DNA of 64,000 nucleotides, taken from IMG/VR virus record IMGVR_UViG_3300037420_001136, positions 27,891 to 91,890 of that record; one strand, written 5' to 3'. The position numbers were made by a program, and so were the translations under genes. This DNA is from a virus. The stretch's first letter is position 1. Every line of letters starts with the position of its first letter. Of the stretch, positions 5,965 through 57,548 are shown piece after piece. The notes beneath the pieces are model-generated. The model had not been told where the DNA came from. It did no database searches and saw only the letters and a list, made by a program, of their open reading frames with translations.

Positions 5965-5993
5965 TTGCCGCGCGAGCAGCGCCGTGGCACCTA
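5965..5993 (+). promoter_or_regulatory. sigma70-like promoter with spacer GA, upstream of the structured RNA
   Basis: TTGCCG-cgcGA(17 bp)-CACCTA. Confidence 0.6.
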
Positions 5994-5999
5994 GGCCCT

Positions 6000-6460
6000 A
6001 GGCGGCGCTGGCAGAGCGCATCACAAGCCTCCCGATGTTTTCCTCGCGGACTTCTGACGGGAACTCGAATACTCTGCAAGAGAGCAAGGCATTGAAGTTT
6101 GAAGCGTGGACCTCGGTCACTCTCCTGTAACAGGGATTGAGCGTTTCTTACGGAGCCGCGATGGACAATGGCGAGGGTTTGGGAGCGCACTAGCTGCGCT
6201 CTGCAGAATAGTCCTCCGGAAGCTTCGGCTGAAGGAAATGCATCCTCCGCTCTCGAACCGGCCCTGGAGGGAAACTTCCGCGAAGCCTCGGCGACGCAGT
6301 AGGAAGCGGTACCTCTAGGGCCTTCTCTCTTCTTCTCTCGTCGTGTGTCTAGCCCCGCACATGACCACGATGGGAGGCCCGGGAGCTTTCCTCGTCCCGC
6401 GAGGAACTTGAGTGCAGGGATTCACTCTTGGCGCACAGTGTCGTAGCTCCCGCTTCCTCT
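6000..6460 (+). ncRNA. Candidate large structured non-coding RNA
   Basis: No credible ORF; own promoter; nested helices 6027-33/6372-78, 6041-47/6171-77, 6183-89/6195-6201, 6260-70/6312-22, 6381-87/6445-51. Confidence 0.55.
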
Positions 6461-6472
6461 CTAAAATAAAAC

Positions 6473-6501
6473 TTGTCCAGCGAGCTGTGCTGAGCTAGAG
6501 C
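6473..6501 (+). promoter_or_regulatory. sigma70-like promoter with spacer GA (exonuclease-terminase operon)
   Basis: TTGTCC-agcGA(17)-TAGAGC. Confidence 0.6.
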
Positions 6502-6540
6502 TCACTAGTCTAGACTGATCAGACTAGGAAGAGAGTACTC

Positions 6541-7098
6541 ATGCTCGCGTGTCTGTTTGACACCGAAACCACCGGCATCTACGACTATCGCGCTCCGGCT
6601 GGGGCCGATCATCAGCCGGACGTAGTCCAGCTCTGTGCTATGCTCTGCGATAAGGAGAGAATCTACAGCGCAGTCAATTTGTTCATTCACGCCGACACCG
6701 AGATTCCCGACGCCGCGTACGAAGTTCATCGCATCGATCGCGCTCTGACCGCGCGAGTTGGAGTAAGCCGTCTCCGCGCCTGTCAGCTCCTGGACAGCAT
6801 GGCCGCGAAGGCGGACGAGCTGGTTGGTCACAACATCGACTTTGACGTCAATATGATGATGACCGCCATGATGCGCGAGGGCGGAAAGGGAGCTAATCTC
6901 AAGAAGCCTCGGTTCTGCACCATGAAGTCGGCGGTGGAGCACTGCAAGCTTCCCAATCCGAAGCGTCCTGGAACCTACAAGTGGCCCTCTCTTCAGGAGG
7001 CTTACCAGATCTTGGTAGACTCCAAGGGCTTCTCCGGCGCTCACGACGCTATGGCCGATGCGAGAGCAACGTATGAGCTCTACCGCATTCTCCGTTAA
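6541..7098 (+). CDS. DEDDh 3'-5' exonuclease (DnaQ-like)
   Basis: FDTETTG, VHRI, VGHNIDFD, AHDAMAD motifs. Confidence 0.9.
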   Translation: MLACLFDTETTGIYDYRAPAGADHQPDVVQLCAMLCDKERIYSAVNLFIHADTEIPDAAYEVHRIDRALTARVGVSRLRACQLLDSMAAKADELVGHNIDFDVNMMMTAMMREGGKGANLKKPRFCTMKSAVEHCKLPNPKRPGTYKWPSLQEAYQILVDSKGFSGAHDAMADARATYELYRILR

Positions 7099-7582
7099 CG
7101 AACTTACCGAGGAGCTTGCTCTTCAGGTCGCCGAGGCCTTCGTTCTGTGTGACCGAGATCCTACGCGCATGGCGCGAAAGCTCGGCGTAGATCGCTTCGA
7201 TCTCAATATCGTCATGCATCCGATGGTGAGGAGCTACATCGTCAAGATGGAGCGGATGACTGTCGTCAGCTGCACGCTGGAAGATCACATGAAGCAGCTC
7301 GCGAAGATTCGTGACGCGGCAATGGATGACGAGAACTACAAGGTTGCTCTGGCAGCCGAGACGCAGCGAGGAAAGGCGGCGGGACACTACGACCCCAAGA
7401 AGCTGGATGATCCTGCTGACGACGGTAAGCCGATTGACGCCACCAAACTCTCCAGCGAGGAGCTGAGGCGTCGTCTCGCTAAATTCATCGGGGCAAGCAT
7501 CACCGATCCGAATGCTCTTCCTCCTCCCGAGCCTGGATCTCTCGAGGGTCAGGCGGCGTTGGACGACGACGATCAGATATGA
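7073..7582 (+). CDS. Putative terminase small subunit
   Basis: Helical protein directly upstream of and overlapping TerL; AALAAE.QRGKAAG.Y segment. Confidence 0.6.
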   Translation: MSSTAFSVNELTEELALQVAEAFVLCDRDPTRMARKLGVDRFDLNIVMHPMVRSYIVKMERMTVVSCTLEDHMKQLAKIRDAAMDDENYKVALAAETQRGKAAGHYDPKKLDDPADDGKPIDATKLSSEELRRRLAKFIGASITDPNALPPPEPGSLEGQAALDDDDQI

Positions 7583-9015: not shown

Positions 9016-9019
9016 GTGC

Positions 9020-9049
9020 TTGTCTTTAGAGGGCAAAACCGGCTAGGCT
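9020..9049 (+). promoter_or_regulatory. sigma70-like promoter with spacer GA (nrdJ)
   Basis: TTGTCT-ttaGA(18)-TAGGCT. Confidence 0.6.
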
Positions 9050-9085
9050 GGTACCCTTGGCGAGCAAACAAGAGGAATTAGACGG

Positions 9086-11044: not shown

Positions 11045-11049
11045 CGCCA

Positions 11050-12401: not shown

Positions 12402-12430
12402 TTGGTACCGCGCCGCGCCTCTTTGAGCAA
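12402..12430 (-). promoter_or_regulatory. sigma70-like promoter with spacer GA
   Basis: TTGCTC-aaaGA(17)-TACCAA on - strand. Confidence 0.6.
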
Positions 12431-12438
12431 GCATCAGT

Positions 12439-12708: not shown

Positions 12709-12928
12709 CCTCCCTCGTAATCTTGGCTACCACGTCTCGCTCGCCGTTACGCAGCACGAGACGATCAGTACCGTATTCCTTCTCTACCGAGAACTCTCTA
12801 CGAGAGCCGTGGTAGTAGACGCAGCGATCACGGGTGCACTCTTCTCGCAAACGGAGAGTGTCCTGCGCCGCCGCAGCAGTGGGATACCCTAGGGTAAGTC
12901 CCAGCACAAGCAGAAACTTACGTCGCAT
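12656..12928 (-). CDS. Small exported protein (signal peptide)
   Basis: MRRKFLLVLGLTLGYPTAAAA-Q signal peptide; GGAGG RBS. Confidence 0.55.
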   Translation of the reverse strand: MRRKFLLVLGLTLGYPTAAAAQDTLRLREECTRDRCVYYHGSRREFSVEKEYGTDRLVLRNGERDVVAKITREDDGTLEVKRADRRRKDR

Positions 12929-13826: not shown

Positions 13827-14383
13827 CAGCTAGCCTTTATAGTGCCACAATCGTCCTCGTGCTGCAAGCCGTGACTGCTCTGCTTGTACACGGGAAATCC
13901 CTTCTCCGCTGCCGCCTTATTCTCTCTGTGCACGTACCATCTCTTTCGCCAGTTGATGTGGAAGTTCGTGGGTGAAGTCCCAGAAGCCTCGGCGATCTTC
14001 TCCAGGAGTGCGTAGTTCGCCTTTCCCAGACGAAGAAGAGAGTGCGCGGTCTTGTGATGCACTCCTAGGATCTTGCTTAATTCTCGCGCGTTGTTTCCGC
14101 TTAGAAGTTTGCAGAACTCGCGGACGAGCTCGTTGTCCACCTGGAACTCGTACCACGGTCTCTTCAGGAGGAACTTCTCTATGTTTATGTCCAGATATTC
14201 CGCGATGGATAGTATCGTCTCGAAGTCTTTGAGACGCTCGCCTTTGATAAGACGATAGATAGCTTTGTGATCTATTCCCGCGCGAGTGTGAAGCTGATAG
14301 GCAGCGCCTTCAGCCTTCCCTAGTCTCGCTAGAGCAACTTCGCGAAACTTCTGGTGATTTAATCTAACGGCCTTCTTGAGCAG
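13826..14383 (-). CDS. Tandem XRE-type HTH protein, probable CTG start
   Basis: Frame open from 14395 to 13826; two HTH-like repeats (AGIDHKAIYRLIKGE...LSIAEYL; LGVHHKTAHSLLRLG...LEKIAEAS). Confidence 0.6.
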   Translation of the reverse strand: MLKKAVRLNHQKFREVALARLGKAEGAAYQLHTRAGIDHKAIYRLIKGERLKDFETILSIAEYLDINIEKFLLKRPWYEFQVDNELVREFCKLLSGNNARELSKILGVHHKTAHSLLRLGKANYALLEKIAEASGTSPTNFHINWRKRWYVHRENKAAAEKGFPVYKQSSHGLQHEDDCGTIKAS

Positions 14384-19008: not shown

Positions 19009-19037
19009 CAGCTAGCAGGAGACAGTTCAGTTGACAA
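19009..19037 (-). promoter_or_regulatory. sigma70-like promoter with spacer GA (endolysin operon)
   Basis: TTGTCA-actGA(17)-TAGCTG. Confidence 0.55.
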
Positions 19038-19757: not shown

Positions 19758-19786
19758 CTTATGGCACCTTGGCGCTCCGGACGCAA
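19758..19786 (-). promoter_or_regulatory. sigma70-like promoter with spacer GA
   Basis: TTGCGT-ccgGA(17)-CATAAG. Confidence 0.6.
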
Positions 19787-19805: not shown

Positions 19806-19834
19806 TTGCATCTTGGCCTAACTTGCGCTAGGGT
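19806..19834 (+). promoter_or_regulatory. sigma70-like promoter without spacer GA (primase)
   Basis: TTGCAT-17-TAGGGT. Confidence 0.45.
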
Positions 19835-19876: not shown

Positions 19877-22348
19877 ATGGCAGAGAGCCTGTTTGCCGAT
19901 TTTCTGAAGTCCTCCCTGGACGTTAAGTCCATCAACGACTTCTTTGTCCAGAACCGCAACAAGACGCAGGAAGTACTCCAGCGACTTAGACCAGAAGGTC
20001 GAGTAGACGGTGGACGATTCAAGCTAGCCTCTGTTGAGGGTGGCGCAGGCTCCAGCTTCGACTACAATCTTCAGAACGGTCACTGGGGCGACTGGGCCGC
20101 GAACGACTCGCACCACGGGCTCGTGGGCTTCGTCTGTGCGACGATGAAGTGTTCCTCGGCACAGGCGATCCAATTCCTCATTGACGAGAAGTATCTCGAT
20201 GCCAAAGAAGTCAAGAAGGTTCTCGCTGCCTCGGAAGGCGATCCTCTCGTATTTCCAATACCGGAGGACCAGCAAGACTGGGAGTTTGTTCTACAGTCAG
20301 ATCCGCTTCGAAAAGATCGCGGCATCCTTCGCGAGCACTGGACCTTTCGTGACGTTGACGGATCCCTTCTCGGGTACAAGTATCGTGTAGACTCCCGTAA
20401 TACGAATAAGGAAGTCTACACCCTCACATATCGCGGACACTCCGGCTGGGTGAAGAAGGATTGGGCTAAGAAGATCGTACCACCATACGGACTCGAGCAG
20501 CTCGGCGACGGTACCCCGACGGTTCGTATTCTCTTCGTGGAGGGCGAGAAGGCTAAGGACAAGGCGCAGGAACTCTTCGGCGAACGCTGGAAGGTTCTCT
20601 CCTACAGCGGCGTCAAGGGCAGTCACGATCTATGGCTTCCTGACGAGGCGTTCTGGCAGGACGCAGAGGTCGTCATCTGGCCAGACAACGACACACCGGG
20701 AAGAGAAGCATCTCGTCGCATTCAACTTCTTCTCCAGGGACAGAAGTTCAAACCACGCGAGATCCGTATCGTACGAGTTGAGACGATTCCAGGATTATCT
20801 CCGGGCTGGGATCTTGGCGACTACGACGACTCTACTCCAATAGATCCGGACGTAGAGCTGGAGCGCGCCGAGGCGGTAGACTCCTTTGAGCACGTATGTC
20901 GCCAGTGGGTCTACGTCGCCAAGGAAGATAAGTTCTACAATCTCGAAGATCGCGAGATTATTCTCACACCCGCCGCCTTCGATCGTTATCTCACTCGCTA
21001 CGGCGATAAGTCCGGTTCCGCCAGCAAGAAGTTTCTCTCTGACTTGGACACTCACAAGTGCGAAGATCTGGACTTTCTCCCAGGCGTCGGCACCTTCATC
21101 AAAACTCCGGCTGGTAAGGTTCTTCTCAACGAATGGTATCCCTCGGCTGTATATTCTCGCGCGACGGAACTTGCTGGAGATCTCAGCGTCTCGGACGAAG
21201 AGATCGAAGAGAAGGCGAAGTACTTCATCGCACATCTCAACCGAGTAAGTGGGAACGAAGTCGTAGAACCTGAGAAGAATGCTGACGGACTACCAATCCT
21301 AGGTACGGAGCAACGGCTTCTCAGAGACGCTCTGGCGTTCTACTTTCACAACGTAATCTCACGTCCTATGGACAAGCAGGGTTGGTTCCCTGTTCTCGTG
21401 TCGGAGCACAACGGCACCGGCAAATCGTACTTCCGACGTGTCATGGCCGCGCTTCTTGGCGGGAAGCGCGTTCAGGAGCTAACTGTCCAGGAATACGTCT
21501 CTGACTACCAAGACTGGATGGATGGGACACTCTTCTACGAGTTGGGCGAGGTTAAGAGTCACGACTCGGCTGAGGTTTACGAGCTGCTGAAGAAGAATCA
21601 CAGCTACCTTCCATTCAACGACACCGATCTTCGCGACCGCTCTCAAGGCAATCGCCACATCAACATCAAGGGCACGAAGAAAAAGCTCCAGCGTAACTTC
21701 CTCAACGGCTTCATGACTTCCAACGACTTGTTCCCGCTGGCGCTGGCGAATAGCTCCGGTCTGGAGGGCAGCGATCGTCGCCTGTTAGCTGTGAACTGCG
21801 AGCAAATCTTAACCGAGGTGGAGGCCGATCAGCTCTTCGACGAGCTTAACGAGAATGCGGCATACATCGGCGCTTGGCTGCTGAGATTTAAGTCACCCTG
21901 CCCTTGGAATCCTGGCTGGGCACCAATCACGAAGCACAAGCGGCGCATGCTCGAGAAGGATCGCGAGCGCAGTGAAAATCGTGCCGACAAGTACGAGCTC
22001 GGCAAGTTCGATGAATTCTACCATCTCGTCAGGTGGGCCATAGAAGAGAAGATTGGGTTGTTCGCGCGACGAGTTCAGACGGCAGAGGGTATTCGCGAGT
22101 TGTGCGAGGCTAGACGGGTTAAGTTCCCGTGGGACATGGGACGATTCGAGCGCATTCTAGAGAAGGCTGGTCTCTTCAAAGGCCCCGTAATCGTGGTGGA
22201 GGGCCAGATGAAGAAGACCTACTCAGCCAATCCAGAGATGGAGGGTAAGCCGGCGACTGATTGGATCAAGGCTTCCAAGGAGCCTATCAACTCCACGAAG
22301 CCTCAGCGCGGCAAGGACAAGGATAACTCAGGCGGGGGCCACTTCTAA
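19877..22348 (+). CDS. Primase-helicase (TOPRIM + C-terminal P-loop NTPase)
   Basis: FVEGEKA, IWPDNDTPG, GWDLGD TOPRIM motifs; NGTGKS Walker A. Confidence 0.85.
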   Translation: MAESLFADFLKSSLDVKSINDFFVQNRNKTQEVLQRLRPEGRVDGGRFKLASVEGGAGSSFDYNLQNGHWGDWAANDSHHGLVGFVCATMKCSSAQAIQFLIDEKYLDAKEVKKVLAASEGDPLVFPIPEDQQDWEFVLQSDPLRKDRGILREHWTFRDVDGSLLGYKYRVDSRNTNKEVYTLTYRGHSGWVKKDWAKKIVPPYGLEQLGDGTPTVRILFVEGEKAKDKAQELFGERWKVLSYSGVKGSHDLWLPDEAFWQDAEVVIWPDNDTPGREASRRIQLLLQGQKFKPREIRIVRVETIPGLSPGWDLGDYDDSTPIDPDVELERAEAVDSFEHVCRQWVYVAKEDKFYNLEDREIILTPAAFDRYLTRYGDKSGSASKKFLSDLDTHKCEDLDFLPGVGTFIKTPAGKVLLNEWYPSAVYSRATELAGDLSVSDEEIEEKAKYFIAHLNRVSGNEVVEPEKNADGLPILGTEQRLLRDALAFYFHNVISRPMDKQGWFPVLVSEHNGTGKSYFRRVMAALLGGKRVQELTVQEYVSDYQDWMDGTLFYELGEVKSHDSAEVYELLKKNHSYLPFNDTDLRDRSQGNRHINIKGTKKKLQRNFLNGFMTSNDLFPLALANSSGLEGSDRRLLAVNCEQILTEVEADQLFDELNENAAYIGAWLLRFKSPCPWNPGWAPITKHKRRMLEKDRERSENRADKYELGKFDEFYHLVRWAIEEKIGLFARRVQTAEGIRELCEARRVKFPWDMGRFERILEKAGLFKGPVIVVEGQMKKTYSANPEMEGKPATDWIKASKEPINSTKPQRGKDKDNSGGGHF

Positions 22349-22352
22349 ATCC

Positions 22353-22799
22353 TTAGGTGGTCTGGAATCTCCCTAAGAATTCTCTAAGTGACTGCTCGAT
22401 AAAGAGTTTATTAGCGTAGGAATTATAGTAACGATTACGTCCGCTAGGATGTGGAATGATCAGCACATCCTTGTGGGCGTACCCGAAGGGCTGATAACGA
22501 AAGTTCTGTGGTAGAGCCATCGCAGCATCTCGCCCGAGGACGATGAACCTAGCTTCGTTCACACAGCGAAGCTTCTCCAAGCGCTTCTTCATACGCTCGC
22601 GAACTTCGGGTGCCGTCGTGGGAGTCGTGTGGTCGTCCACCACGTTGTAGCGTATCGTCTCGTTGAGGTACTCTTCCTGAGACATTCCCAGCATCTTCAT
22701 CAGTCTCGCCGCCGCTCCCGTCGTCGTATGTGGAAACAGTGGCCGAGCTGGATCCGTGTTCGGCCCCGGACGCTCGCCGAATATGATTATCTTAGTCAT
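22353..22799 (-). CDS. Uracil-DNA glycosylase superfamily protein
   Basis: IIIFGERPG, IVLGRDA, IPHPSGRNRYYN motifs. Confidence 0.7.
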   Translation of the reverse strand: MTKIIIFGERPGPNTDPARPLFPHTTTGAAARLMKMLGMSQEEYLNETIRYNVVDDHTTPTTAPEVRERMKKRLEKLRCVNEARFIVLGRDAAMALPQNFRYQPFGYAHKDVLIIPHPSGRNRYYNSYANKLFIEQSLREFLGRFQTT

Positions 22800-22814
22800 A
22801 GTGCACAGAAACAC

Positions 22815-23156
22815 CTACAGAGTTCCCTTGATCTTTCTGAAGCGCGGCTGTGTCACAGACGAGGCTGACGGACTCACCGCACTGTTGAACTCCGTCTCGG
22901 GGCGAAGCCAGACCTGCCGTTCGTGTGGATAGCAGTGCATGTACGCGACTAAGAACTGGCCTCGTCCATTTCTCGCCTGCTGGCCGGTCTCGGCATCCAT
23001 CGCCGGTCCAAGATAGCGATAAAGTCCGCCCTTGTAGTGCTGATGCGTGGCGTCAGGCGCTAAGACTCTTAGTCGGTCGTCGCTCATTCCAACGAGCTCT
23101 GAGTGATGCACGAAACTCCTCCTGATCTGCATTGGTAGGTTCTCTCGTTGACCCAA
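22815..23156 (-). CDS. DUF1653-like protein
   Basis: HQHYKGGLYRYL...ET...V.Y...WLRP..EF. Confidence 0.7.
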   Translation of the reverse strand: MGQRENLPMQIRRSFVHHSELVGMSDDRLRVLAPDATHQHYKGGLYRYLGPAMDAETGQQARNGRGQFLVAYMHCYPHERQVWLRPETEFNSAVSPSASSVTQPRFRKIKGTL

Positions 23157-23358
23157 GTTCCGAGGTAGCTTGAGCCATGCGTCTTCCAGGCTCGTTCACC
23201 TCGAACCCATAGTACGTGTAGTAGATCCGTGCTCCGTAGCGCGTGTGCATCTTCTGCCAGGACTTCTGCATCTCCACGTAGATTTCCGCCTTCCACTCAA
23301 CGTCGAAGACGCAGTCCGGATAGTCGTTAGACATTACGACGAAGATCTTAGCCATCAA
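23053..23358 (-). CDS. Hypothetical protein
   Basis: Operon context; GGAGG RBS. Confidence 0.5.
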   Translation of the reverse strand: MMAKIFVVMSNDYPDCVFDVEWKAEIYVEMQKSWQKMHTRYGARIYYTYYGFEVNEPGRRMAQATSELGSTREPTNADQEEFRASLRARWNERRPTKSLSA

Positions 23359-23650: not shown

Positions 23651-23679
23651 AGGCTAGTGCCGCGGCATTCGCACCGCAA
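23651..23679 (-). promoter_or_regulatory. sigma70-like promoter with spacer GA
   Basis: TTGCGG-tgcGA(17)-TAGCCT. Confidence 0.65.
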
Positions 23680-23682: not shown

Positions 23683-24144
23683 TCATGTGCTCTGGGCGCA
23701 CACGTCCGGATGGTAGAAGAGAGGAAACTGCGTAAGTCTTACGAGCAAGATCTCGCCCATCTTGATCTCGTGCTTGAGTCTACACGGATAGCCGCACTCC
23801 CCGCATCTCCCCTCCATGGTTCCCTCGCTCGAGTGCTTGATGGAGCCGAAGTACTTCCAGGCGCTTGGACTCATGGGATGGCCCGTGACCTGAATACCGC
23901 AGGCGGGACACTTAATCTCGTTGGCGATGGTGCGAATAGGATCAGCGAAGGCTGCGAGATATCGTTCAATCGCCTCGAACCAGTCCGGATGCTGGCGGAG
24001 CTCGTCCATACCCTTCGGCCACAAATGCTCGGGCCGACAGATGGTCATCTCGTGAGCGAGGACGACTCCGTTAAAAGTCTTGACTGGATGCTCTTCTTCC
24101 CTGGACGGGATCTCGAGGTGATCAGGTATTTTTGCTTCTGTCAT
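23683..24144 (-). CDS. Zn-ribbon-containing hypothetical protein
   Basis: CPAC...CGEC. Confidence 0.6.
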   Translation of the reverse strand: MTEAKIPDHLEIPSREEEHPVKTFNGVVLAHEMTICRPEHLWPKGMDELRQHPDWFEAIERYLAAFADPIRTIANEIKCPACGIQVTGHPMSPSAWKYFGSIKHSSEGTMEGRCGECGYPCRLKHEIKMGEILLVRLTQFPLFYHPDVCAQST

Positions 24145-24580
24145 AGTATCCCGGTGGTATCTTCTGTAGGGTTATAGGGTCTCGCCCCTGCTCACGCCAG
24201 AAGTTCTGACACGTGGCTACAAATCGCGCCATGTGAAATTCTTCCTGACGAAGCTGGCACAGGAAGTTTTGAATTATCAGACACACAATGTCGTCTGAGG
24301 AGCCGATGCCAAAGCGTCTCATATAATGACGAGGAAGAGGGAAGGATCTATCCTCGAGATACCAGCTTCTCTTGAGATGATCTCCCAAGGGACGATGGAG
24401 ACTCTTCAGCGTCGACACCCCGTAGAGCTCCTTCTTCATCACGTCCGACCAAGGTGCGTGATGAAGACACCACAGAGCATTCTCGTGAGTGAGTGGGAAG
24501 GTGTGCGAGAAGTCAACGGACATTACAACCTCCGTCGCGCCCAAGTGCTCCACACTACGCTCATGAGCAGGCATTGACAA
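24122..24580 (-). CDS. Hypothetical protein
   Basis: 152-aa ORF in operon. Confidence 0.55.
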   Translation of the reverse strand: MSMPAHERSVEHLGATEVVMSVDFSHTFPLTHENALWCLHHAPWSDVMKKELYGVSTLKSLHRPLGDHLKRSWYLEDRSFPLPRHYMRRFGIGSSDDIVCLIIQNFLCQLRQEEFHMARFVATCQNFWREQGRDPITLQKIPPGYYDRSKNT

Positions 24581-24581
24581 G

Positions 24582-24866
24582 CTACTCCGACTTCTGAAAC
24601 AGCCTGCCGGTGCCGAACTGACGGGCTACCTGCACGGCCGACTTTATGCTTCTAATGAAGCGAGGCGTCGTCATTCTCTTTGTGGTCTTCTCGGCCACAG
24701 CGTTGAGATGATTCAGGGACGCAATGATGACGATCATCTGGTCACGAATGGGGAGATCTTTGGTAGCCTCGACCTGCATCTGCTGGAAGGCTATCATGAG
24801 ACGATTCGTGACGGGCTGAAGCCTCTCTAAATCCTTAGTATCACAGTCTAAAAAGAGATCAGCCAT
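24582..24866 (-). CDS. Hypothetical protein
   Basis: ORF adjoining next gene. Confidence 0.5.
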   Translation of the reverse strand: MADLFLDCDTKDLERLQPVTNRLMIAFQQMQVEATKDLPIRDQMIVIIASLNHLNAVAEKTTKRMTTPRFIRSIKSAVQVARQFGTGRLFQKSE

Positions 24867-27185: not shown

Positions 27186-27214
27186 AGCATAAGGGCGCGT
27201 TGCTCCAGCCGCAA
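27186..27214 (-). promoter_or_regulatory. sigma70-like promoter with spacer GA
   Basis: TTGCGG-ctgGA(17)-TATGCT. Confidence 0.7.
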
Positions 27215-27804: not shown

Positions 27805-27953
27805 TGCTATTTTCCCTTATTGAAGTCCTGCTCAGAGCGACGAACAAGCTCGCGCTCGATCATCTCTGCCGTCGCGTGCGCTCCCAACTCAATTGCTCTG
27901 TGCATCTGCTCACGGAGTTCCTCCGTCGAGCGTTCCGTTATTCCAAAGCGCAC

Positions 27954-28542: not shown

Positions 28543-28571
28543 AGTATGGCGCGGGGTTGCTCCTAACGCAA
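28543..28571 (-). promoter_or_regulatory. sigma70-like promoter with spacer GA
   Basis: TTGCGT-tagGA(17)-CATACT. Confidence 0.7.
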
Positions 28572-29652: not shown

Positions 29653-29681
29653 AGTATGGCGGCAGTTTCCTCGCACAGCAA
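29653..29681 (-). promoter_or_regulatory. sigma70-like promoter with spacer GA
   Basis: TTGCTG-tgcGA(17)-CATACT. Confidence 0.7.
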
Positions 29682-31286: not shown

Positions 31287-31315
31287 ATTATGCGGCGGCA
31301 CAGCTCTTAGCGCAA
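31287..31315 (-). promoter_or_regulatory. sigma70-like promoter with spacer GA
   Basis: TTGCGC-taaGA(17)-CATAAT. Confidence 0.75.
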
Positions 31316-31878: not shown

Positions 31879-31907
31879 AGTATGGGGCGGTGCAGCTCGT
31901 CAGACAA
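31879..31907 (-). promoter_or_regulatory. sigma70-like promoter with spacer GA
   Basis: TTGTCT-gacGA(17)-CATACT. Confidence 0.7.
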
Positions 31908-36510: not shown

Positions 36511-36539
36511 AAGGTGCCACAGGGGCGCTCCAGCCGCAA
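36511..36539 (-). promoter_or_regulatory. sigma70-like promoter with spacer GA
   Basis: TTGCGG-ctgGA(17)-CACCTT. Confidence 0.6.
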
Positions 36540-40016: not shown

Positions 40017-40045
40017 ATTGTACGCGGGCGCTACTCCGCGGGCAA
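40017..40045 (-). promoter_or_regulatory. sigma70-like promoter with spacer GA
   Basis: TTGCCC-gcgGA(17)-TACAAT. Confidence 0.75.
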
Positions 40046-42528: not shown

Positions 42529-42557
42529 AGTATAAGGCGGGGTTGGTCGCGTGCCAA
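42529..42557 (-). promoter_or_regulatory. sigma70-like promoter with spacer GA
   Basis: TTGGCA-cgcGA(17)-TATACT. Confidence 0.75.
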
Positions 42558-43021: not shown

Positions 43022-43050
43022 TTGTCACTAGAGCAACCGGCTGCTATATC
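43022..43050 (+). promoter_or_regulatory. sigma70-like promoter with spacer GA
   Basis: TTGTCA-ctaGA(17)-TATATC (alphaproteobacterial GCTATATC -10). Confidence 0.7.
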
Positions 43051-43957: not shown

Positions 43958-44416
43958 TCAGCTACCTTCTGGGCCACCTCGGTCGCGGCGTCTCTTCGCC
44001 CTCTCTTCCTCTCTGGCGAGTCTAGCGGCACGGTATTCCTCCCCTTTGGCGATTGGCGATATGTTACCGCCCAAAATCTCGCCGGACAACTTCTGCTTGG
44101 TCCGTCCTCTTGGGTAGATCTGACCAACGACCTTCCCAGTTTCTGGGTGGTGTATCATAATCGCGCTGTGATCCAGCTTTCGCCAGAATACGAACCAATC
44201 CCAGTTGATCTCGGTGTCCGTCTCGCGAAGAAGATCAATCAACCACTCGTCGTCGCTGTCGTACCAGAGCCCAAAGTCGGCCCTGAACTCTCGCCTGACG
44301 ACTTTTCCGGGGATTATCGCGTGTCCAGACACGACGAAGACTATTTCTCGCCTGACGGATCGGAATCGATCACCGTCCCAGCAGCTCTCCTCGGCGAACG
44401 ATAGGACTTGGGACAT
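43958..44416 (-). CDS. Hypothetical protein
   Basis: 152-aa ORF. Confidence 0.55.
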   Translation of the reverse strand: MSQVLSFAEESCWDGDRFRSVRREIVFVVSGHAIIPGKVVRREFRADFGLWYDSDDEWLIDLLRETDTEINWDWFVFWRKLDHSAIMIHHPETGKVVGQIYPRGRTKQKLSGEILGGNISPIAKGEEYRAARLAREEERAKRRRDRGGPEGS

Positions 44417-44576: not shown

Positions 44577-44606
44577 ATAATGCGCCGCCACCCCTCCAGG
44601 TTGCAA
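44577..44606 (-). promoter_or_regulatory. sigma70-like promoter with GA 12 nt before -10
   Basis: TTGCAA-cctgGA(18)-CATTAT. Confidence 0.55.
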
Positions 44607-44732: not shown

Positions 44733-44761
44733 TTTACCTTTGAGAGACGCTTTGGCATATA
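44733..44761 (+). promoter_or_regulatory. sigma70-like promoter with spacer GA
   Basis: TTTACC-tttGA(17)-CATATA. Confidence 0.55.
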
Positions 44762-44825: not shown

Positions 44826-45482
44826 ATGAGCAAAAATCGTAACAAGGGCGGAGCTCGCCCGCAGAACGACGGCAGCGGCGGCGCGCTCACCGTCAGCGAC
44901 AGCACTGGCTCGGCCGAGGGCAAGGCGCCCGAGGGTGGCGAGTCCGGCGCTGCCGAGGCGGCTGCACCCGACCCGTTCGCCGACGTGCCGGTCACCAAGA
45001 TCGGCGACGACGTGGAGTTCAGCGACTTCTCGGACACGCCCACGGCGGATCCGCGCAAGTATGCCAACGTCCACGCGGCTGCGGTCGGCGATCGCCTTCC
45101 GACGGTCAAGGGCTGGAAGCACGAGCGTGCCATGCTCGTTCCGGGTACCAACCGGAAGGAGTTCAAGCAGGGCTCGGTGTACGGCACCATCCAGCAGATC
45201 GTCAACGCTGCTGGCCGCACCGGAATCCCGGCGTACGTCGTGGCTACCAAACTGCGTCGGCTCCAGGTCGGCAACAAGCGGTCGCACTACTGCGGCACCG
45301 GCGAGGTCGCCCAGCTCCCGCCCATCGGTTGGGCCGAGGGCTGGCTGAACACGGCGATTACCAAGAACATCGCCGGCGTCCACCCGACCAAGCAGGCTCC
45401 GGCCCTCCGCGAGGAGGTCACCGAGGGCGAGGCCAACGTCAACAAGGCCGAGTCGCAGGGCAAGCTCGCAGCCAACGGCTGA
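44826..45482 (+). CDS. Hypothetical protein, stand-alone transcription unit; possible paralog of island protein 51955-52473
   Basis: AGGAG RBS, own promoter and terminator, strongly GC3-biased codons; IGWAEGWLN motif. Confidence 0.75.
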   Translation: MSKNRNKGGARPQNDGSGGALTVSDSTGSAEGKAPEGGESGAAEAAAPDPFADVPVTKIGDDVEFSDFSDTPTADPRKYANVHAAAVGDRLPTVKGWKHERAMLVPGTNRKEFKQGSVYGTIQQIVNAAGRTGIPAYVVATKLRRLQVGNKRSHYCGTGEVAQLPPIGWAEGWLNTAITKNIAGVHPTKQAPALREEVTEGEANVNKAESQGKLAANG

Positions 45483-45776: not shown

Positions 45777-45805
45777 TTGCGCGTGGAGCAGGGCGCGGCT
45801 AACCT
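45777..45805 (+). promoter_or_regulatory. sigma70-like promoter with spacer GA
   Basis: TTGCGC-gtgGA(17)-TAACCT. Confidence 0.7.
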
Positions 45806-46288: not shown

Positions 46289-46564
46289 ATGGGTTCAATG
46301 CGTTTCATGTCCACGATGGACGGTCGCCCGCCGAAGCTCTTCAGCTTCGACTCGTCTCCTGGTCACGCGATTGCGGTCGCGCTCGGCGATCTGGACGAGA
46401 AGTCCTACCAGAGCGAGCTCAAGGAAGTCCTTCCCGACGGCGAGGAGGTCTATGAGATCCGTATGCGTCGCGCGCAGACCGACGTCAATCCCGGCCCCCA
46501 TCCGCTCTGCAAGGTGGGAGTAATCCACTACAAGCAGCCGTCGTACATGAGCAATCTGCGCTAG
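46289..46564 (+). CDS. Hypothetical protein
   Basis: Operon context. Confidence 0.55.
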   Translation: MGSMRFMSTMDGRPPKLFSFDSSPGHAIAVALGDLDEKSYQSELKEVLPDGEEVYEIRMRRAQTDVNPGPHPLCKVGVIHYKQPSYMSNLR

Positions 46565-46590
46565 GCGCTGGAGGAAGGCCGCGCTATTCT
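46562..46590 (+). promoter_or_regulatory. sigma70-like promoter with spacer GA
   Basis: TAGGCG-ctgGA(17)-TATTCT. Confidence 0.55.
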
Positions 46591-46841: not shown

Positions 46842-47566
46842 GCGAGAAGAGCAAGGCGGATTTGGAGCGCGTCAAGCGCGTAATCCAGGCTCTGCAAGCC
46901 AAGACGCAGGACAACGGCTGCACGGAGGAGGAGGCGCTCGCCGCCGCCGAGAAGCTCGGTCAGCTGCTGGAGGAGCACAACCTCAACATCGACGAGGTCG
47001 GCGTCCGTGACGAGACGGCTGAGTGTCGCAAGAACGAGGTCTTCGCGGCTGACGACTTCGCCGGTACGCTGGTGGTCGGCATCAAGCACTTCTGCGGCAT
47101 CATCGCTTACCGCGAGCACGGCTCGGGTCACGCGGGCAAGTACGTGTTCTTCGGCACGGCGCACGACGTGGAGATCGCTCTGTATCTCTACGAGATTTGC
47201 GCCGAGGCGATGGACAACGACTGGCAGTCCTTCATGGACAGGCACGGCTACTCCATGAAGAAGCGTATGTCGTTCCGCGCTGGCTTCGCGCATCGCGTGT
47301 ACGATCGCCTGATGCAGATGAAGCGCGAGCGCGACGAGCGTAGTCGCAAGGCGACCGGAACGGCGCTAATGGTCCTCAAGGATCAGCTCGTAACCGAGGC
47401 GTTCCAGCGTCAGCTCGGCATCAAGCTGGTGAAGTCTCGCGAAAGTCGCAATATGGCGGCAGATCCCAACGCGTACCGCGAGGGTATGGCGGCCGGAGCT
47501 CGCGTCAATCTTAACAATCCGCTCGGTAATCCGGCCGGGAACAATCAGGCTTTGGCGGGCGACTGA
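46838..47566 (+). CDS. DUF2786-domain protein
   Basis: RVIQALQAKT.DNGCTEEEALAAAEK..QLL..HNL N-terminus; SF..GFA.R...RL; AYREG.AAG..V.L. Confidence 0.8.
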   Translation: MSEKSKADLERVKRVIQALQAKTQDNGCTEEEALAAAEKLGQLLEEHNLNIDEVGVRDETAECRKNEVFAADDFAGTLVVGIKHFCGIIAYREHGSGHAGKYVFFGTAHDVEIALYLYEICAEAMDNDWQSFMDRHGYSMKKRMSFRAGFAHRVYDRLMQMKRERDERSRKATGTALMVLKDQLVTEAFQRQLGIKLVKSRESRNMAADPNAYREGMAAGARVNLNNPLGNPAGNNQALAGD

Positions 47567-47580
47567 TGCGCGGGTACAGT
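47552..47580 (+). promoter_or_regulatory. sigma70-like promoter with spacer GA
   Basis: TTGGCG-ggcGA(17)-TACAGT. Confidence 0.65.
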
Positions 47581-47983: not shown

Positions 47984-48012
47984 TTGTAGCTTGACCCAAT
48001 CTGGTGTATAAG
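47984..48012 (+). promoter_or_regulatory. sigma70-like promoter with spacer GA
   Basis: TTGTAG-cttGA(17)-TATAAG. Confidence 0.6.
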
Positions 48013-48377: not shown

Positions 48378-48406
48378 TGGTGCCACGACTAAAGCGACTG
48401 TATGCT
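48378..48406 (+). promoter_or_regulatory. sigma70-like promoter with spacer GA (weak -35)
   Basis: TGGTGC-cacGA(17)-TATGCT then GTAAGGGTAGGC. Confidence 0.55.
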
Positions 48407-48821: not shown

Positions 48822-48850
48822 TTGCGCTTTGAGCAAAGGCGTGGCAGAGT
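48822..48850 (+). promoter_or_regulatory. sigma70-like promoter with spacer GA
   Basis: TTGCGC-tttGA(17)-CAGAGT. Confidence 0.55.
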
Positions 48851-49497: not shown

Positions 49498-49526
49498 TTG
49501 GCGCGCGACGGAAGCCACCGCATACT
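49498..49526 (+). promoter_or_regulatory. sigma70-like promoter with spacer GA
   Basis: TTGGCG-cgcGA(17)-CATACT then GCAAGGGTAGGC. Confidence 0.7.
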
Positions 49527-49765
49527 GCAAGGGTAGGCGGCAGTAGGAGTTAGGGCCGTGTTTCTCTGTACCATCGGGTGTGTCTGACAGGTCGCCCGCC
49601 CAAAAGTCAGCCGAGGGATGGCGGTGCGCGTCCATCTCCCGCAGCGGGCGCTATGTCCGCTCAGGCATTCCGCGAGTCAATCGCTGCTGCCGTCCGGACG
49701 CGGCTCAACGTCCGGCTTCGCAAGCCGTGGTTCTCACCACGGTTTCCGTTGAGAAAGGGGAAGAT

Positions 49766-50094: not shown

Positions 50095-50123
50095 TTGCGC
50101 GCCGAGAAGCCCGAGCGTATCCT
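50095..50123 (+). promoter_or_regulatory. sigma70-like promoter with spacer GA
   Basis: TTGCGC-gccGA(17)-TATCCT then GCAAGGGTAGC. Confidence 0.7.
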
Positions 50124-50151
50124 GCAAGGGTAGCAAGCAAAGGAGCTCACA

Positions 50152-50994: not shown

Positions 50995-51023
50995 TAGGTG
51001 CGCGAGCAGGATCGAGGCATACT
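50995..51023 (+). promoter_or_regulatory. sigma70-like promoter with spacer GA (weak -35)
   Basis: TAGGTG-cgcGA(17)-CATACT then GCAAGGGTAGGC. Confidence 0.6.
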
Positions 51024-51053
51024 GCAAGGGTAGGCAGTAAAAGGACTTGGGCC

Positions 51054-51649: not shown

Positions 51650-51800
51650 GTCGCTCGTCGTTTGACGGGACGGATCTGATATACGATCAGCTCCGTCCTC
51701 ATCTCGTCTCTCTGCGTCGTGATCACGTCCGGAGGTAGAGGGCGATCTGGACGAAGATCTAGGCGCTTCTCTGCACTCCTCTCGGCGTCCTTTTGCTGCG

Positions 51801-51838
51801 GCGCCAAACACTCGGTTCACCGCGCCAAACACTCGGTT
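51801..51838 (+). repeat. Tandem 17-bp direct repeat at the left edge of the island
   Basis: GCGCCAAACACTCGGTT at 51801 and 51822 (21-bp period). Confidence 0.85.
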
Positions 51839-51872
51839 TGCCGCAAATCTGGTCCGCGCCGCCGCGCCAAGG

Positions 51873-51901
51873 TTGCCATGCTGCCAAGGTGCGCGCATAT
51901 A
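51873..51901 (+). promoter_or_regulatory. sigma70-like island promoter (no GA)
   Basis: TTGCCA-17-CATATA. Confidence 0.65.
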
Positions 51902-51954
51902 CAGGCCAGCCGTTGCCATTGGGGCAGCGGCCAGCAAGCAAAGGTACAAACAAC

Positions 51955-52473
51955 ATGGCAAACCGTAACAACAGCAAAACCGCCGCCACTGCCAACGCCA
52001 AGGTAGCGCCCGCCTTGCGCGCCGCTGCCATTGTGGCGCGGCACGGCATGGCAGGGCAGGCGCGCGCCATTGCCGCTACTGGCGCAGCCGCCGCTAGCGC
52101 CAAGCGTTACAGCGCGCGCCTTGGCAGCCTTAACCCCGCATTTGCGGCCGCCACCTTTACGCTAACGCCACTTGGCAAACAGGCAGTGGCGGCCAACGGT
52201 TGTATTGGCAGCAAGGGCCAGCCAACAGTTATGGGCTTGTTTGCCGTAGCGTTGGCTAACGCCACAGCGGCCAACAATGGCGCGCCCGCCACAGGGCAGC
52301 AAGTTTGCTTGGCAATGCTTGGCAACCCGCAGCTTATGCAAGCTGCCTTGGCAACTAAGGCAGCAGGCACGCACCTAATACCCGCCAACACAACGGCAAT
52401 GGGCTGGGCGCAGGGCTATGTTAACGGCTTGTGCCGTAGCGCGCACGGCCTAGCCAAAAAGGCACTAGCCTAA
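51955..52473 (+). CDS. Island protein 1: 172 aa, Ala-rich, basic, no Asp/Glu
   Basis: GA-free SD AAAGGT 9 nt before ATG; TAA stop; MGWAQGYVN motif. Confidence 0.75.
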   Translation: MANRNNSKTAATANAKVAPALRAAAIVARHGMAGQARAIAATGAAAASAKRYSARLGSLNPAFAAATFTLTPLGKQAVAANGCIGSKGQPTVMGLFAVALANATAANNGAPATGQQVCLAMLGNPQLMQAALATKAAGTHLIPANTTAMGWAQGYVNGLCRSAHGLAKKALA

Positions 52474-52535
52474 CGCCTAGGGGCGCGGCTAACCGCCGCG
52501 CCCCAACCCGCCACACAAGCAAAAGGTAACGCAAC

Positions 52536-52769
52536 ATGTACACGCCAACACAAGCCAAGCCAGCCGCCGCGCCAACCCGCGCAAGCTACATGCGCGCCGC
52601 CCTGTACCATTACGCGCCCGCGCCCTATGCGCCGCGCCGTTACGGCAAGGTGCGCAGTATGGCCGCAATGCTGGCAAGCTATAGCCCCAAGGTACGCCAA
52701 GCTTACATGGCGCGGCAGTGGGCGCGCATTGCCAACGGCCAAGCGCCTAATTGGCCGCGCAAAAGCTAG
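52536..52769 (+). CDS. Island protein 2: 77 aa, Ala/Arg/Tyr-rich, no Asp/Glu
   Basis: Leader AAGCAAAAGGTAACGCAAC resembles that of protein 1; TAG stop; terminator follows. Confidence 0.7.
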   Translation: MYTPTQAKPAAAPTRASYMRAALYHYAPAPYAPRRYGKVRSMAAMLASYSPKVRQAYMARQWARIANGQAPNWPRKS

Positions 52770-52802
52770 GCCGGTTTTAAGCGCCACACAGGGCCGCAAC
52801 CC

Positions 52803-52836
52803 GCGCCCGCTACCTAGGTAGCGGGCGCTTTGCTTT
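52803..52836 (+). terminator. Intrinsic terminator closing the island operon
   Basis: GCGCCCGCTAC-CTAG-GTAGCGGGCGC-TTTGCTTT. Confidence 0.8.
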
Positions 52837-52986
52837 GCGCCTGTACGTGCACGCTAGGTGGCATAGCGGCCAAGGCGCTATGGTACCTAGGCCCCATATA
52901 CCCCACGCCCACCACGCGGGCCTCAGTCACTGTAGGCGCAGAATTCTCTCGAAAATTCGAAGAATTCTCACTCCTCTCATCGTCAC

Positions 52987-53016
52987 TTGTCAACCGACCT
53001 CCCTCCATGCTACATC
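52987..53016 (+). promoter_or_regulatory. sigma70-like promoter with spacer GA (portal)
   Basis: TTGTCA-accGA(18)-TACATC. Confidence 0.55.
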
Positions 53017-53047
53017 GGCCCCTAACCCTTAGACTGGGACATTCAGC

Positions 53048-55191: not shown

Positions 55192-55194
55192 GCC

Positions 55195-56152: not shown

Positions 56153-56159
56153 AAAGGGC

Positions 56160-56188
56160 TTGTCAGGGCCTGCGTCACCTGCTATATG
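56160..56188 (+). promoter_or_regulatory. sigma70-like promoter without spacer GA (scaffold)
   Basis: TTGTCA-17-TATATG. Confidence 0.65.
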
Positions 56189-56251
56189 ACGATTCGCTGC
56201 CGACGGGGTCGGTGGTCTTGGTCGGCGGGGTCGACCTAGCAGGAGACTAAA

Positions 56252-57049
56252 ATGCCCGAGTTGATCTACGACAAGGCCGAGGATGTTCCGGCCGCTCTCA
56301 AAGACATCGCTAAGGAAAAGGACGGCAAGTTCATCGCGAACGTCGTCGCCAAGGCGGAGCTGGACGACTTCCGCCAGCGGAACATCAACGTCTCGCAGGA
56401 GCGAGACAATCTCCAGAGCACCATCGGCCGACTGACGACGGATCTAGCTCTCGACCCGCAGAACCTGGACGGGTTCGTAGACGAGGTCAAGGAGCTTCGC
56501 GATGTGAAGCAGCAGGTGGACGACGGCAAGCTCGTCAAGGACACCTCGCTCGCTCAGGCGGTGGAGTCCAAGACCGCCGAGATGCGTCGCTCGTACGAGG
56601 AGCGCATTCGCGGACTGGAGCATTCCAACAAGACGCTCACCTCGGACAACGAGAAGCTGAAGAGCGACGTCAACCGCTCCATCATCGATCGCGAGGTTAT
56701 GAAGGCCATCGGCGACCCCAAGTCTGGCGCGCGGCCGGAGGCGACGCAGCACATTCTCCGCGAGGCCTACGAGGTCTACAAGGTGGAGGACGGGAAGCTC
56801 GTTCCGAAAGACGCCAGCGGCAACGTGATCTACGGTACGGACGGTGCCTCCCCGATGAGTCCGAAGGAGTGGCTCGTCAAGCAGCAGGAAGCGACGCCCT
56901 TCTTCTTCAAGGAAGCGCAGGGCGGCGGAGGCGGAGGCGGCGGCGGAAACGGCGCAGGACCTCTCTCGCCCGCAGCCATCGCCGAGATGTCGCCGGAAGA
57001 AAAGATGAACTATGGCCGCGAGCACGGCCTGGACGGCCGTTCCCGATAG
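56252..57049 (+). CDS. Capsid scaffolding protein
   Basis: Coiled-coil, position before MCP, FFF...GGGG C-terminal linker. Confidence 0.7.
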   Translation: MPELIYDKAEDVPAALKDIAKEKDGKFIANVVAKAELDDFRQRNINVSQERDNLQSTIGRLTTDLALDPQNLDGFVDEVKELRDVKQQVDDGKLVKDTSLAQAVESKTAEMRRSYEERIRGLEHSNKTLTSDNEKLKSDVNRSIIDREVMKAIGDPKSGARPEATQHILREAYEVYKVEDGKLVPKDASGNVIYGTDGASPMSPKEWLVKQQEATPFFFKEAQGGGGGGGGGNGAGPLSPAAIAEMSPEEKMNYGREHGLDGRSR

Positions 57050-57108
57050 AAGGAGGTAGGGGTCGCCTAATCCTCGTCGGGCGACCCTCCTCATAGAAGG
57101 CGAGAGTC

Positions 57109-57330
57109 GTGTCTAGTGAAGGCTACGTCATCTCAAACCCTAAAGGGAATAATCGGGATCTCGAGATTCACTTCCGGGGAAGAAACGGCTCTCAAAAGAA
57201 GTTCAAGACTCTACGGCCTGGAGAGGCGTGCCGCTGTGACAAGCGACTCGTCACTATAATGGAAAAGGCACGCCCTCCACGGCTTCAGCTCCTCAAGAAC
57301 GGTCAGCTCGTCAAAGATCGGAAGAGGTAA
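57109..57330 (+). CDS. Small basic hypothetical protein
   Basis: 73-aa ORF between scaffold and MCP. Confidence 0.4.
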   Translation: MSSEGYVISNPKGNNRDLEIHFRGRNGSQKKFKTLRPGEACRCDKRLVTIMEKARPPRLQLLKNGQLVKDRKR

Positions 57331-57519
57331 GTGTCCGAGAGGGTGCGCCCCGCTCTCTGCACCCTGTTTCTCGTAGTGCTGGTCATTGGCTTCTGTAGCC
57401 ACTCTCAGAACACGGCGCACCGCCAGCTAACCCGCACAAGCCAAGGCACCCACGCACGCGCTCGATGAGGCATCTGAGGCCTCCCAGGTTGGTCGCAAAA
57501 GTTTTTTGCCAACGGGGGC

Positions 57520-57548
57520 TTGCCAAACCCTCAGATCTGCGGTATAGA
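57520..57548 (+). promoter_or_regulatory. sigma70-like promoter without GA at spacer 4-5 (major capsid)
   Basis: TTGCCA-17-TATAGA. Confidence 0.6.

Follow-up and report, generated by a model that had tools for sequence, protein, structure and literature searches.

A GA dinucleotide at -26/-25 is a genuine third element of the predicted promoters of an uncultured soil phage: it is fixed in position, under selection and specific to the lineage. The phage genome is 91.9 kb, and the window analysed here is the 64,000-nucleotide part of it at positions 27,891 to 91,890 of IMG/VR record IMGVR_UViG_3300037420_001136. In nearly all predicted promoters of the phage and its relatives, the GA step lies 6 bp past the TTG of the -35 element and 12 bp before the -10 element, and ~76 promoters carrying it, as defined from their sequence, were found across four lineages of uncultured soil phages. 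The explanation that best fits the evidence overall, to which we give an even chance, is that GA would be a third fixed element read by a trans-acting factor and likely overlying a hypermodified thymine.

The promoter frame is of the sigma70 type, in which c-TTG occupies -36 to -33 and YATAcT -12 to -7, with a 17-bp spacer; YA at -12/-11 and a distribution of spacer lengths with a single 17-bp peak are both as expected for sigma70 promoters. In the -35 hexamer only the TTG is conserved (T, T and G at 28, 25 and 27 of 28 sites, respectively), and it is imperfect at four sites (Table 1). Most of the predicted promoters are located 53-68 nt upstream of a start codon; their leader carries a Shine-Dalgarno sequence and is shared (GGGTAGGCAGCA...AGGAGG). 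Each of the 28 GA promoters listed in the initial annotation is present where it was placed; with the T of TTG as the alignment point, +9 is G in 28/28 and +10 is A in 27/28. The sole exception, at 44606, has an 18-bp spacer with GA shifted 1 nt further, a deviation that had been reported for promoters of that spacer length. Spacer positions beside the GA are near background while GA itself is invariant, and the consensus of the element is cTTGnnnnnnGAgc.

Table 1. Predicted promoters with and without the GA element, and the GA/TC-free cassette (window coordinates).
Feature	Position	Strand	Remarks
GA promoter	5965..5993	+	TTG-N6-GA-N12-CACCTA; upstream of non-coding gap; ortholog in relative G001 keeps TTG/GA/-10
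GA promoter	6473..6501	+	upstream of RNase_T-like exonuclease gene 6541-7098 and terminase genes
GA promoter	9020..9049	+	upstream of ribonucleotide reductase; kept in three lineages; spacer may be read as 18 bp (TTG-N6-GA-N13-TAGGCT)
GA promoter	12402..12430	-	
GA promoter	12881..12909	-	absent from initial annotation
GA promoter	13839..13867	-	absent from initial annotation
GA promoter	19009..19037	-	-35 TTGTCA
GA promoter	19758..19786	-	
GA promoter	23651..23679	-	
GA promoter	27186..27214	-	
GA promoter	28543..28571	-	
GA promoter	29653..29681	-	
GA promoter	31287..31315	-	
GA promoter	31879..31907	-	
GA promoter	36511..36539	-	
GA promoter	40017..40045	-	
GA promoter	42529..42557	-	top-scoring site
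GA promoter	43022..43050	+	
GA promoter	44061..44089	-	absent from initial annotation
GA promoter	44577..44606	-	18-bp spacer; TTG-N7-GA-N12-CATTAT; layout identical in G001
GA promoter	44733..44761	+	TTT for TTG; serves gene 44826-45482 (possible winged-helix protein)
GA promoter	45777..45805	+	
GA promoter	46562..46590	+	TAG for TTG
GA promoter	47552..47580	+	
GA promoter	47984..48012	+	
GA promoter	48378..48406	+	TGG for TTG
GA promoter	48822..48850	+	
GA promoter	49498..49526	+	
GA promoter	50095..50123	+	
GA promoter	50995..51023	+	TAG for TTG
GA promoter	52987..53015	+	weak -10; upstream of portal gene; CG replaces GA in G001 ortholog
sigma70-like promoter without GA	19806..19834	+	TTGCAT-N17-TAGGGT; upstream of primase/helicase gene; by eye
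promoter without GA, of GA/TC-free cassette	51873..51901	+	TTGCCA-N17-CATATA; by eye
promoter without GA	56160..56188	+	TTGTCA-N17-TATATG; G005 ortholog likewise without GA
promoter without GA	57520..57548	+	TTGCCA-N17-TATAGA; upstream of major capsid gene
GA/TC-free cassette	51855..52922	.	promoter, two genes, hairpins; conserved in G001, G006 and G007

Hand-picking of promoters, a caveat attached to the initial list, does not account for the pattern, which was recovered by a neutral skeleton, a Gibbs sampler and a position weight matrix (PWM) trained on relatives only. The skeleton TTG-N20-YAnnnT matched 19 intergenic sites genome-wide, 15 of which carry GA at spacer positions 4-5, whereas offsets other than 9 carry GA only 0-2 times; over the whole genome, genes included, GA was found at offset 9 in 24/72 matches. 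An unbiased motif search of upstream regions had been proposed, and the Gibbs sampler, run on 60 such regions, yielded cTTG-N6-GAG de novo. A matrix of [CG]TTG-N(a)-GA-N(b)-YAnnnT matches over five contigs has a lone peak at a=6, b=12 (60 matches; remaining cells 2-26), and of the three promoter families whose spacer length differs, two keep GA 6 bp from the TTG. The PWM trained on relatives only gave 31 matches in the phage genome against 2.7 expected; these include 23 of the 28 listed sites and three further minus-strand sites in the window (12909, 13867 and 44089).

The relatives comprise four lineages from IMG/VR (portal identity 58-75%, GC 50-60%), and the whole architecture, including the GAGCAR box and its upstream copy described below, is kept in all four. 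With the GA columns masked, GA was present in 36/39 strong matches in the relatives vs 20/156 (13%) background matches. Across ten gap-free pairs of orthologous promoters, the TTG, the GA and the first two bases of the -10 element are identical in 10/10, the other spacer positions being 66% identical. Megablast against cultured phages gave no match, and protein-level relatives of the phage are only about 33% identical; by terminase and portal, the closest cultured relatives are phages that infect Alphaproteobacteria. The window sequence was found as contigs in eleven DNA runs from soil or rhizosphere and in no RNA run, and a host search that scanned genome contigs with the homologue P0087 (on a 293-kb contig) found nothing.

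Rather than standing as a bare 2-bp element, GA makes up the core of a degenerate box, GAGCAR, adjoining the TTG. Its flanks had been described as freely varying, but are not wholly so: 45/76 sites have G at +11 and 35/76 have C at +12. GA is followed by G/C, C/G/T and A/G in succession, and by no NTC. The same architecture includes a GA upstream of the TTG, at -13/-12 (63/76 and 62/76 sites, respectively), such that GAGCAR is directly repeated at positions -13 and +9 counted from the TTG, with a spacing of 22 bp, or two helical turns. The claim that ordinary protein recognition would need more than 2 bp is weak, both because GA lies within this box next to the TTG and because the TG of the extended -10 element is a 2-bp precedent. 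The promoter was also considered as a palindrome with TC...GA arms, which was rejected because its centre is asymmetric and relatives G006 and G007 do not retain the TC at -7/-6.

The GA/TC-free cassette extends for 1070 bp, vs 54 bp for the next longest stretch of this kind, which gives the GA/TC step a special status genome-wide. In promoter cores, fixed positions aside, no dinucleotides are more depleted than GA (0.49 of expectation) and TC (0.72), and the same two are the most depleted in the promoter cores of the relatives (0.60 and 0.66). Promoters without GA carry GA/TC elsewhere in their spacers, so that the step is not always avoided there; among these promoters, which were picked by eye, there is a hint of fuller -35 hexamers (TTGCCA, TTGTCA).

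The phage encodes a 5-hmdU DNA kinase (5-HMUDK; PF18723, E 4e-43) in a cluster with a thymidylate-synthase homologue (PF00303, E 3.5e-21), a TAGT-like glycosyltransferase, HD and DUF3310, so that both genes diagnostic of the 5-hmdU pathway (the kinase and a dUMP hydroxymethylase-type thymidylate-synthase homologue) are present, and the kinase was found in every relative covering that region. For the DpdA/7-deazaguanine route, there was no match in the phage to PF01702 (TGT) or PF06508 (QueC). Hypermodified T occurs in the TS context in phages M6, ViI and phiW-14 (PMC6449724) and in the TG context in phages F8 and 14-1 (PMC12191111), and dPreQ0 occurs at GA in phage iggy (PMC10484667). In this phage 39% of all T is in the TC context; for M6, ViI and phiW-14 the reported share of hypermodified T is 30-50%, a range that includes this value. 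M6, which has 5-HMUDK and served as a control, has no island free of a dinucleotide and no motif in the spacer. Judged from gene content and dinucleotide usage, the promoter GA is probably also the site of a chemically modified thymine; that the modified base is also read at the promoter is plausible, with a likelihood that we place between doubtful and evenly balanced. Of the initial interpretation, the fixed, selected and lineage-specific element and the sigma70-like frame stand and the link to base modification is plausible, whereas the 2-bp argument and an analogy with GcrA (see below) do not hold.

Searches for a protein that could read the element identified none. A six-frame search at E<=1 found no match to MotA (PF09158, MotCF) or AsiA (PF09010), a result that leaves room for a non-homologous analogue, and there was no match among phage-encoded proteins to GcrA (PF07750) or N6_N4 methyltransferase (PF01555). 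There was also no phage match to sigma r2/r4 (PF04542, PF04545), models that often miss divergent phage sigmas. A structural lead came only from the product of gene 44826-45482, which gave weak winged-helix-like rows in VIA-align (Z 4-5.5); it belongs to no Pfam family, had no Foldseek match at E<=0.001, and in Atlas was found in unnamed viral clusters only. Paralogy of this product with cassette protein 1 was considered and rejected as not significant (BLASTP, one 9-residue match, E 0.013; hhalign, 5% probability).

In the mechanism that we propose, host RNA polymerase with its primary sigma would use these promoters, and a trans-acting protein beside sigma region 4 would read the box; this protein would most likely be phage-encoded, a host-encoded reader being less likely, and act like MotA at the -30 box. 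The lineage would make a 5-hmdU-derived hypermodified thymine, probably at 5'-TC-3', and the template-strand T opposite A(-25) would be modified in virion DNA. If modification does occur at TC, then the T paired with A(-25) would be modified, and the reader would either see or have to accommodate a modified pair. The promoters without GA (cassette, major capsid, 56160) would be served by unaided host polymerase. A more elaborate form of this mechanism, which we put forward tentatively and regard as possible rather than probable, would have the hypermodified T of template 5'-TC-3' (opposite A(-25), with a second at -47) serve as an epigenetic mark read by a sigma70-bound phage protein, such that only modified phage DNA would be recognised as promoter. 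The GA/TC-free cassette, which would therefore be unmodified, would start the system, its GA-independent promoter driving two small acid-free candidate readers.

The modification could instead be irrelevant, with GAGCAR an ordinary sequence element that some phage or host protein recognises as plain DNA, and the match to the cassette coincidental or otherwise caused; we consider this somewhat unlikely. The element does exceed GA and does have an upstream copy, and 2-bp elements in fixed register can be read by ordinary contacts, as is the TG of the extended -10 element. MotA, too, functions on unmodified DNA (PMC2988021). Against this, both extra elements centre on the very step that is purged from a conserved cassette of 1.1 kb and depleted in promoter cores, and if TC is the modification context, all promoter GAs would be modified in virion DNA anyway. 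It is improbable that the element is set by the host, through a preference of its sigma, polymerase or a global regulator for GA at -26/-25, with the phage mimicking strong host promoters. Phage GA-less sigma70-like promoters precede the cassette and the capsid gene, and the element survives across phage lineages of 50 to 60% GC, both of which speak against such an origin, as does the fact that we know of no sigma70 or host-factor consensus with a conserved GA at -26/-25. In its favour, the frame cTTG-N17-YATAnT is similar to the sigma70 consensus of alphaproteobacterial promoters, Alphaproteobacteria are the hosts of the nearest cultured relatives by terminase and portal, and no phage-encoded reader emerged from the searches.

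Negative control is an equally improbable role, in which a phage protein on GAGCAR boxes flanking the -35 element would silence most promoters at some stage, like TF1 of SPO1 on hmU DNA. The two boxes do flank the -35 element on the same helix face, 22 bp apart, and the capsid gene and the cassette, being driven by promoters without GA, would escape shut-off. However, the weak -35 hexamers (TTGCGC-type) of the GA promoters better fit activation, and GA promoters also precede portal, terminase and nucleotide-metabolism genes, and so mark no clear temporal class. That GA has no function and was inherited through repeated duplication of one promoter cassette is very improbable: although the common leader (GGGTAGGCAGCA...AGGAGG) and the fixed distance to the start codon would suit such a history, neighbouring spacer positions are near background where GA is invariant, orthologs keep GA in 10/10 vs 66% identity elsewhere in the spacer, and a single sharp (6,12) peak extends across four lineages.

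Promoter boxes that are specific to a phage and read by sigma70 cofactors have been described in only a few model phages, such as T4. The phages described here, which encode a hypermodification pathway, have a sharply defined element at -26/-25 that coincides with the step purged from their cassette and promoter cores. If the mark is read, this would be the first case known to us in which host polymerase takes a hypermodified thymine as a positive promoter signal, and would give a testable account of how transcription of heavily modified phage DNA proceeds; if modification is irrelevant, the element still defines a clean new promoter class with an activator yet to be found.

Among known systems, the extended -10 element TGn is likewise a 2-bp spacer element in fixed register, and compensates for a weak -35 element; it is located at -15/-14 and read by sigma region 3.0, whereas the phage GA lies at -26/-25, which to our knowledge no part of the polymerase reads. 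Caulobacter GcrA, a cofactor of sigma70, recognises m6A within GANTC (PMC4647560, PMC9976885), and the resemblance lies in a monomeric cofactor on sigma70 polymerase reading a modified base near the promoter, and in the likely host group, here alphaproteobacterial. However, this analogy, drawn in the initial annotation, fails because the phage site is not GANTC; in addition, the phage has neither GcrA nor N6_N4 methyltransferase, and its element is position-fixed in nearly all promoters. As in the phages with dinucleotide-context hypermodification, a two-letter context would pick the bases, and this phage has the 5-hmdU kinase route; no role in promoter recognition has been reported for those marks in M6, ViI, phiW-14, F8, 14-1 or iggy (PMC6449724, PMC12191111, PMC10484667), M6 has no island or spacer motif, and the mark in this phage is predicted from genes and sequence. 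The non-virion RNA polymerase of AR9 has uracil-dependent late promoters, an example of base-dependent promoter use in which conserved promoter positions must carry a non-canonical base and the polymerase reads the template strand (PMC5449584); unlike AR9, with its own multisubunit polymerase and gp226, this phage has a sigma70-like frame and no phage polymerase was seen. T4 middle promoters also use host sigma70 polymerase, with a good -10 element and a box at ~-35 to -26 (PMC2988021, PMC6755090), the MotA box lying 12+-1 bp from the -10 element (PMC2988021), and they too number dozens per genome. The likeness to MotA that had been noted lies in the geometry, in that cTTG-N6-GA spans -36 to -25 and is followed by N12 to the -10 element; because MotA does not require modification, such geometry does not imply that modification is read. 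T4 DNA is itself hypermodified, and the modification tunes box activity in special cases (PMC2988021, PMC6755090). The T4 box, (a/t)(a/t)(a/t)TGCTTtA, is unrelated to TTG-N6-GA, the MotA consensus is not matched here and no MotA or AsiA homologue was detected; unlike T4, this phage retains the TTG of the -35 element and adds a second box 22 bp upstream.

All 28 promoters listed in the initial annotation, which had described a near-invariant GA at -26/-25 and proposed that a modified GA is read by a phage factor on host sigma70 RNA polymerase, are present in the window. Aligned on the T of TTG, from which offsets are counted, these sites carry G at +9 in 28/28 cases and A at +10 in 27/28, the sole exception being the 44606 promoter with its 18-bp spacer. 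The signal is also recovered without hand-picking: of the 19 intergenic sites that fit the neutral skeleton TTG-N20-YAnnnT, 15 carry GA at offset 9 and only 0–2 at any other offset, and an unbiased motif search (Gibbs sampler, 60 upstream regions) returned cTTG-N6-GAG, with TT and GA as the most informative columns. Across five contigs, the pattern [CG]TTG-N(a)-GA-N(b)-YAnnnT gives a single sharp peak at a = 6 and b = 12 (60 matches; other cells, 2–26). Further GA promoters were identified in the window (see table), and several more in the part of the genome that precedes it; in most GA promoters the distance from the site to the start codon is 53–68 nt. We regard the GA as an established promoter element of this phage lineage, under selection and fixed in position.

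The source record is 91,890 bp long with direct terminal repeats at its ends (the window being its bases 27891–91890), and encodes terminase, portal, GP7-type major capsid protein, DNA polymerase, a Dda-like helicase, ribonucleotide reductase, ligase, and endolysin. It has no DNA-level match among cultured phages; for terminase and portal, the closest cultured relatives are siphoviruses of Alphaproteobacteria, at only ~33% identity. The sequence was found in eleven DNA runs from soil or rhizosphere, and no RNA run was among the matches listed. IMG/VR contains four related lineages: G001, which is collinear with this genome (portal protein 75% identical, DNA ~72%); G002/G003 and G006 (terminase 77%, portal 66%; GC ~50–52%); and G007 (portal 58%).

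When these relatives were scored by a matrix with both GA columns masked, GA was present in 11/12, 4/5, 15/16, and 6/6 of their strong matches, against 20/156 background matches. Conversely, a matrix built from the relatives only and applied to this genome yields 31 sites (2.7 expected) and recovers 23 of the 28 listed sites. Ten orthologous promoter pairs align without gaps; all ten agree at the TTG, the GA, and the first two positions of the -10 box, against 66% identity over the remaining spacer. This shows that purifying selection maintains the GA, which is thus not a relic of the duplication of one promoter cassette.

The initial annotation regarded the element as a bare dinucleotide, which does not hold: in 76 GA promoters it sits in a longer GAGCAR-like consensus, the bases directly 3' of GA being G (45), C (35), A (35), and A (33). 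The same type of consensus recurs 22 bp upstream of the GA (G in 63/76, A in 62/76, fifth-position A in 63/76). With the -10 box set at -12 to -7, the upstream box starts at -48 and the GA box at -26; the TTG, the only conserved part of the -35 hexamer, occupies -35 to -33. Where spacers are 16 or 18 bp long, two promoter families, the (6,11) family (four lineages) and the promoter of ribonucleotide reductase (three lineages), keep the 6-bp distance between TTG and GA; the family at 44606 instead keeps 12 bp between GA and the -10 box.

Many GA promoters have in common a fixed TTG-to-start-codon distance (53–68 nt) and a conserved leader, GGGTAGGCAGCA followed by AGGAGG at ~+35 to +58 from TTG, possibly acting as a translational or RNA-binding signal. 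The 5965 GA promoter is followed by ~200–500 bp without a convincing gene, where sequence 3' of the promoter is kept in G001 (GGCGGCGCTGGCAGA); a non-coding RNA could be encoded here. Those few sigma70-like promoters that lack GA have TTGCCA, TTGTCA, or TTGCAT as -35; because they were picked by eye, the contrast between this fuller -35 and the TTG of GA promoters is only a hint.

Coordinates of promoter, cassette, and associated features in the window and in contigs of related phages
Feature	Sequence	Position	Remarks
Further GA promoters	window	12909, 13867, 44089	all minus strand
Promoter without GA	window	51873	GA/TC-free cassette
Promoter without GA	window	56160-56188	precedes gene 56252-57049 (no known family); GA/TC elsewhere in spacer
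Promoter without GA	window	57520-57548	precedes GP7-type major capsid gene; GA/TC elsewhere in spacer
Promoter without GA	window	19806	
Leader examples	window	49533-49556, 50130-50150, 51030-51052	
Possible non-coding RNA	window	5994-6455	
Best-conserved early protein	window	44826-45482	own GA promoter
GA/TC-free cassette	window	51855-52922	1070 bp
GA/TC-free cassette	G001	L003:8149-9251	1102 bp
GA/TC-free cassette	G006	L031:14845-16097	1252 bp, one TC
GA/TC-free cassette	G007	L034:11842-13056	1214 bp, one TC
GA/TC-dense cassette border	window	52923-52985	
GA/TC-dense cassette border	G006	L031:16097-16140	
GA/TC-dense cassette border	G007	L034:13056-13150	
254-residue ORF between cassette and portal gene	G001	L003:9143-9907	no Pfam match; absent from this genome

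Directly before the polymerase gene lies a cluster coding for a 5-hmdU DNA kinase (PF18723, E 4e-43; bases 22315–23208 of the genome), a TAGT-like glycosyltransferase (bases 23938–24753 of the genome), a thymidylate-synthase homologue, an HD nucleotidase, and DUF3310; every relative covering that region also has the kinase. Across the whole genome no dinucleotides are more over-represented than GA and TC, and 39% of all thymines are in TC context. Inside GA promoters, with fixed positions excluded, they are the most depleted, at 0.49 (GA) and 0.72 (TC) of the column-independent expectation in this genome and 0.60 and 0.66 in the relatives (51 sites). Both are absent from a two-gene cassette upstream of the portal gene that is kept in four lineages; the next longest such stretch is 54 bp, and no other dinucleotide has a comparable stretch in the genome. 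The cassette has all the parts of a transcription unit: a promoter, two genes, hairpins, and ribosome-binding sites that lack GA and are of AAGGT type in place of GGAG. Its proteins, which lack Asp and Glu, belong to no known family. Non-coding DNA very rich in GA/TC flanks it on both sides, and the downstream border has a motif common to the lineages (TCAGTGA ... AATTCTCGAAAAT-like) that resembles a boundary element.

Hypermodified thymine occurs in TS context in phages M6, ViI, and phiW-14 (PMC6449724), and in a sugar-type form at TG in phages F8 and 14-1 (PMC12191111). Phage iggy has a strict GA target for dPreQ0 (PMC10484667); this genome has no match to DpdA or QueC. The most economical reading is that the T of 5'-TC-3' would be hypermodified, in which case the template-strand T paired with A(-25) would be modified in virion DNA.

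As to what might read the element, no homologues of MotA, AsiA, GcrA, sigma regions 2 or 4, or an N6 methyltransferase were found in the genome. The best-conserved early protein (89% identity in G001) has a model of mean pLDDT 77, in which residues ~114–192 weakly match winged-helix-like structures (Z 4–5.5). Its N-terminus is acidic and disordered, its C-terminal domain of ~150 residues is well conserved, and none of its 95 homologues has a name; a proposed paralogy with cassette protein 1 is not significant. A weak MarR-like protein (bases 21572–22231 of the genome) adjoins the kinase gene.

The reading we favour, at roughly even odds, is that a phage-encoded factor would read the GA next to sigma region 4, much like MotA on T4 middle promoters, and would there meet a base pair bearing hypermodified thymine. 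The initial annotation goes further and has the modification serve as the very signal by which phage and host promoters are told apart; this seems less likely than not, and its argument that 2 bp are unreadable by ordinary contacts is not sound. Base-dependent promoter use is known in AR9 (PMC5449584) and, for certain cases, at MotA boxes (PMC2988021); 5-substituted pyrimidines affect bacterial polymerase (PMC9347353). In no such precedent is the base a hypermodified thymine, or -26/-25 the position that a host polymerase reads. The T4 MotA box occupies -35 to -26, 12 ± 1 bp from the -10 box (PMC2988021), a geometry matched by the cTTG-N6-GA unit of this phage, which extends from -36 to -25 and so leaves 12 bp to the -10 box.
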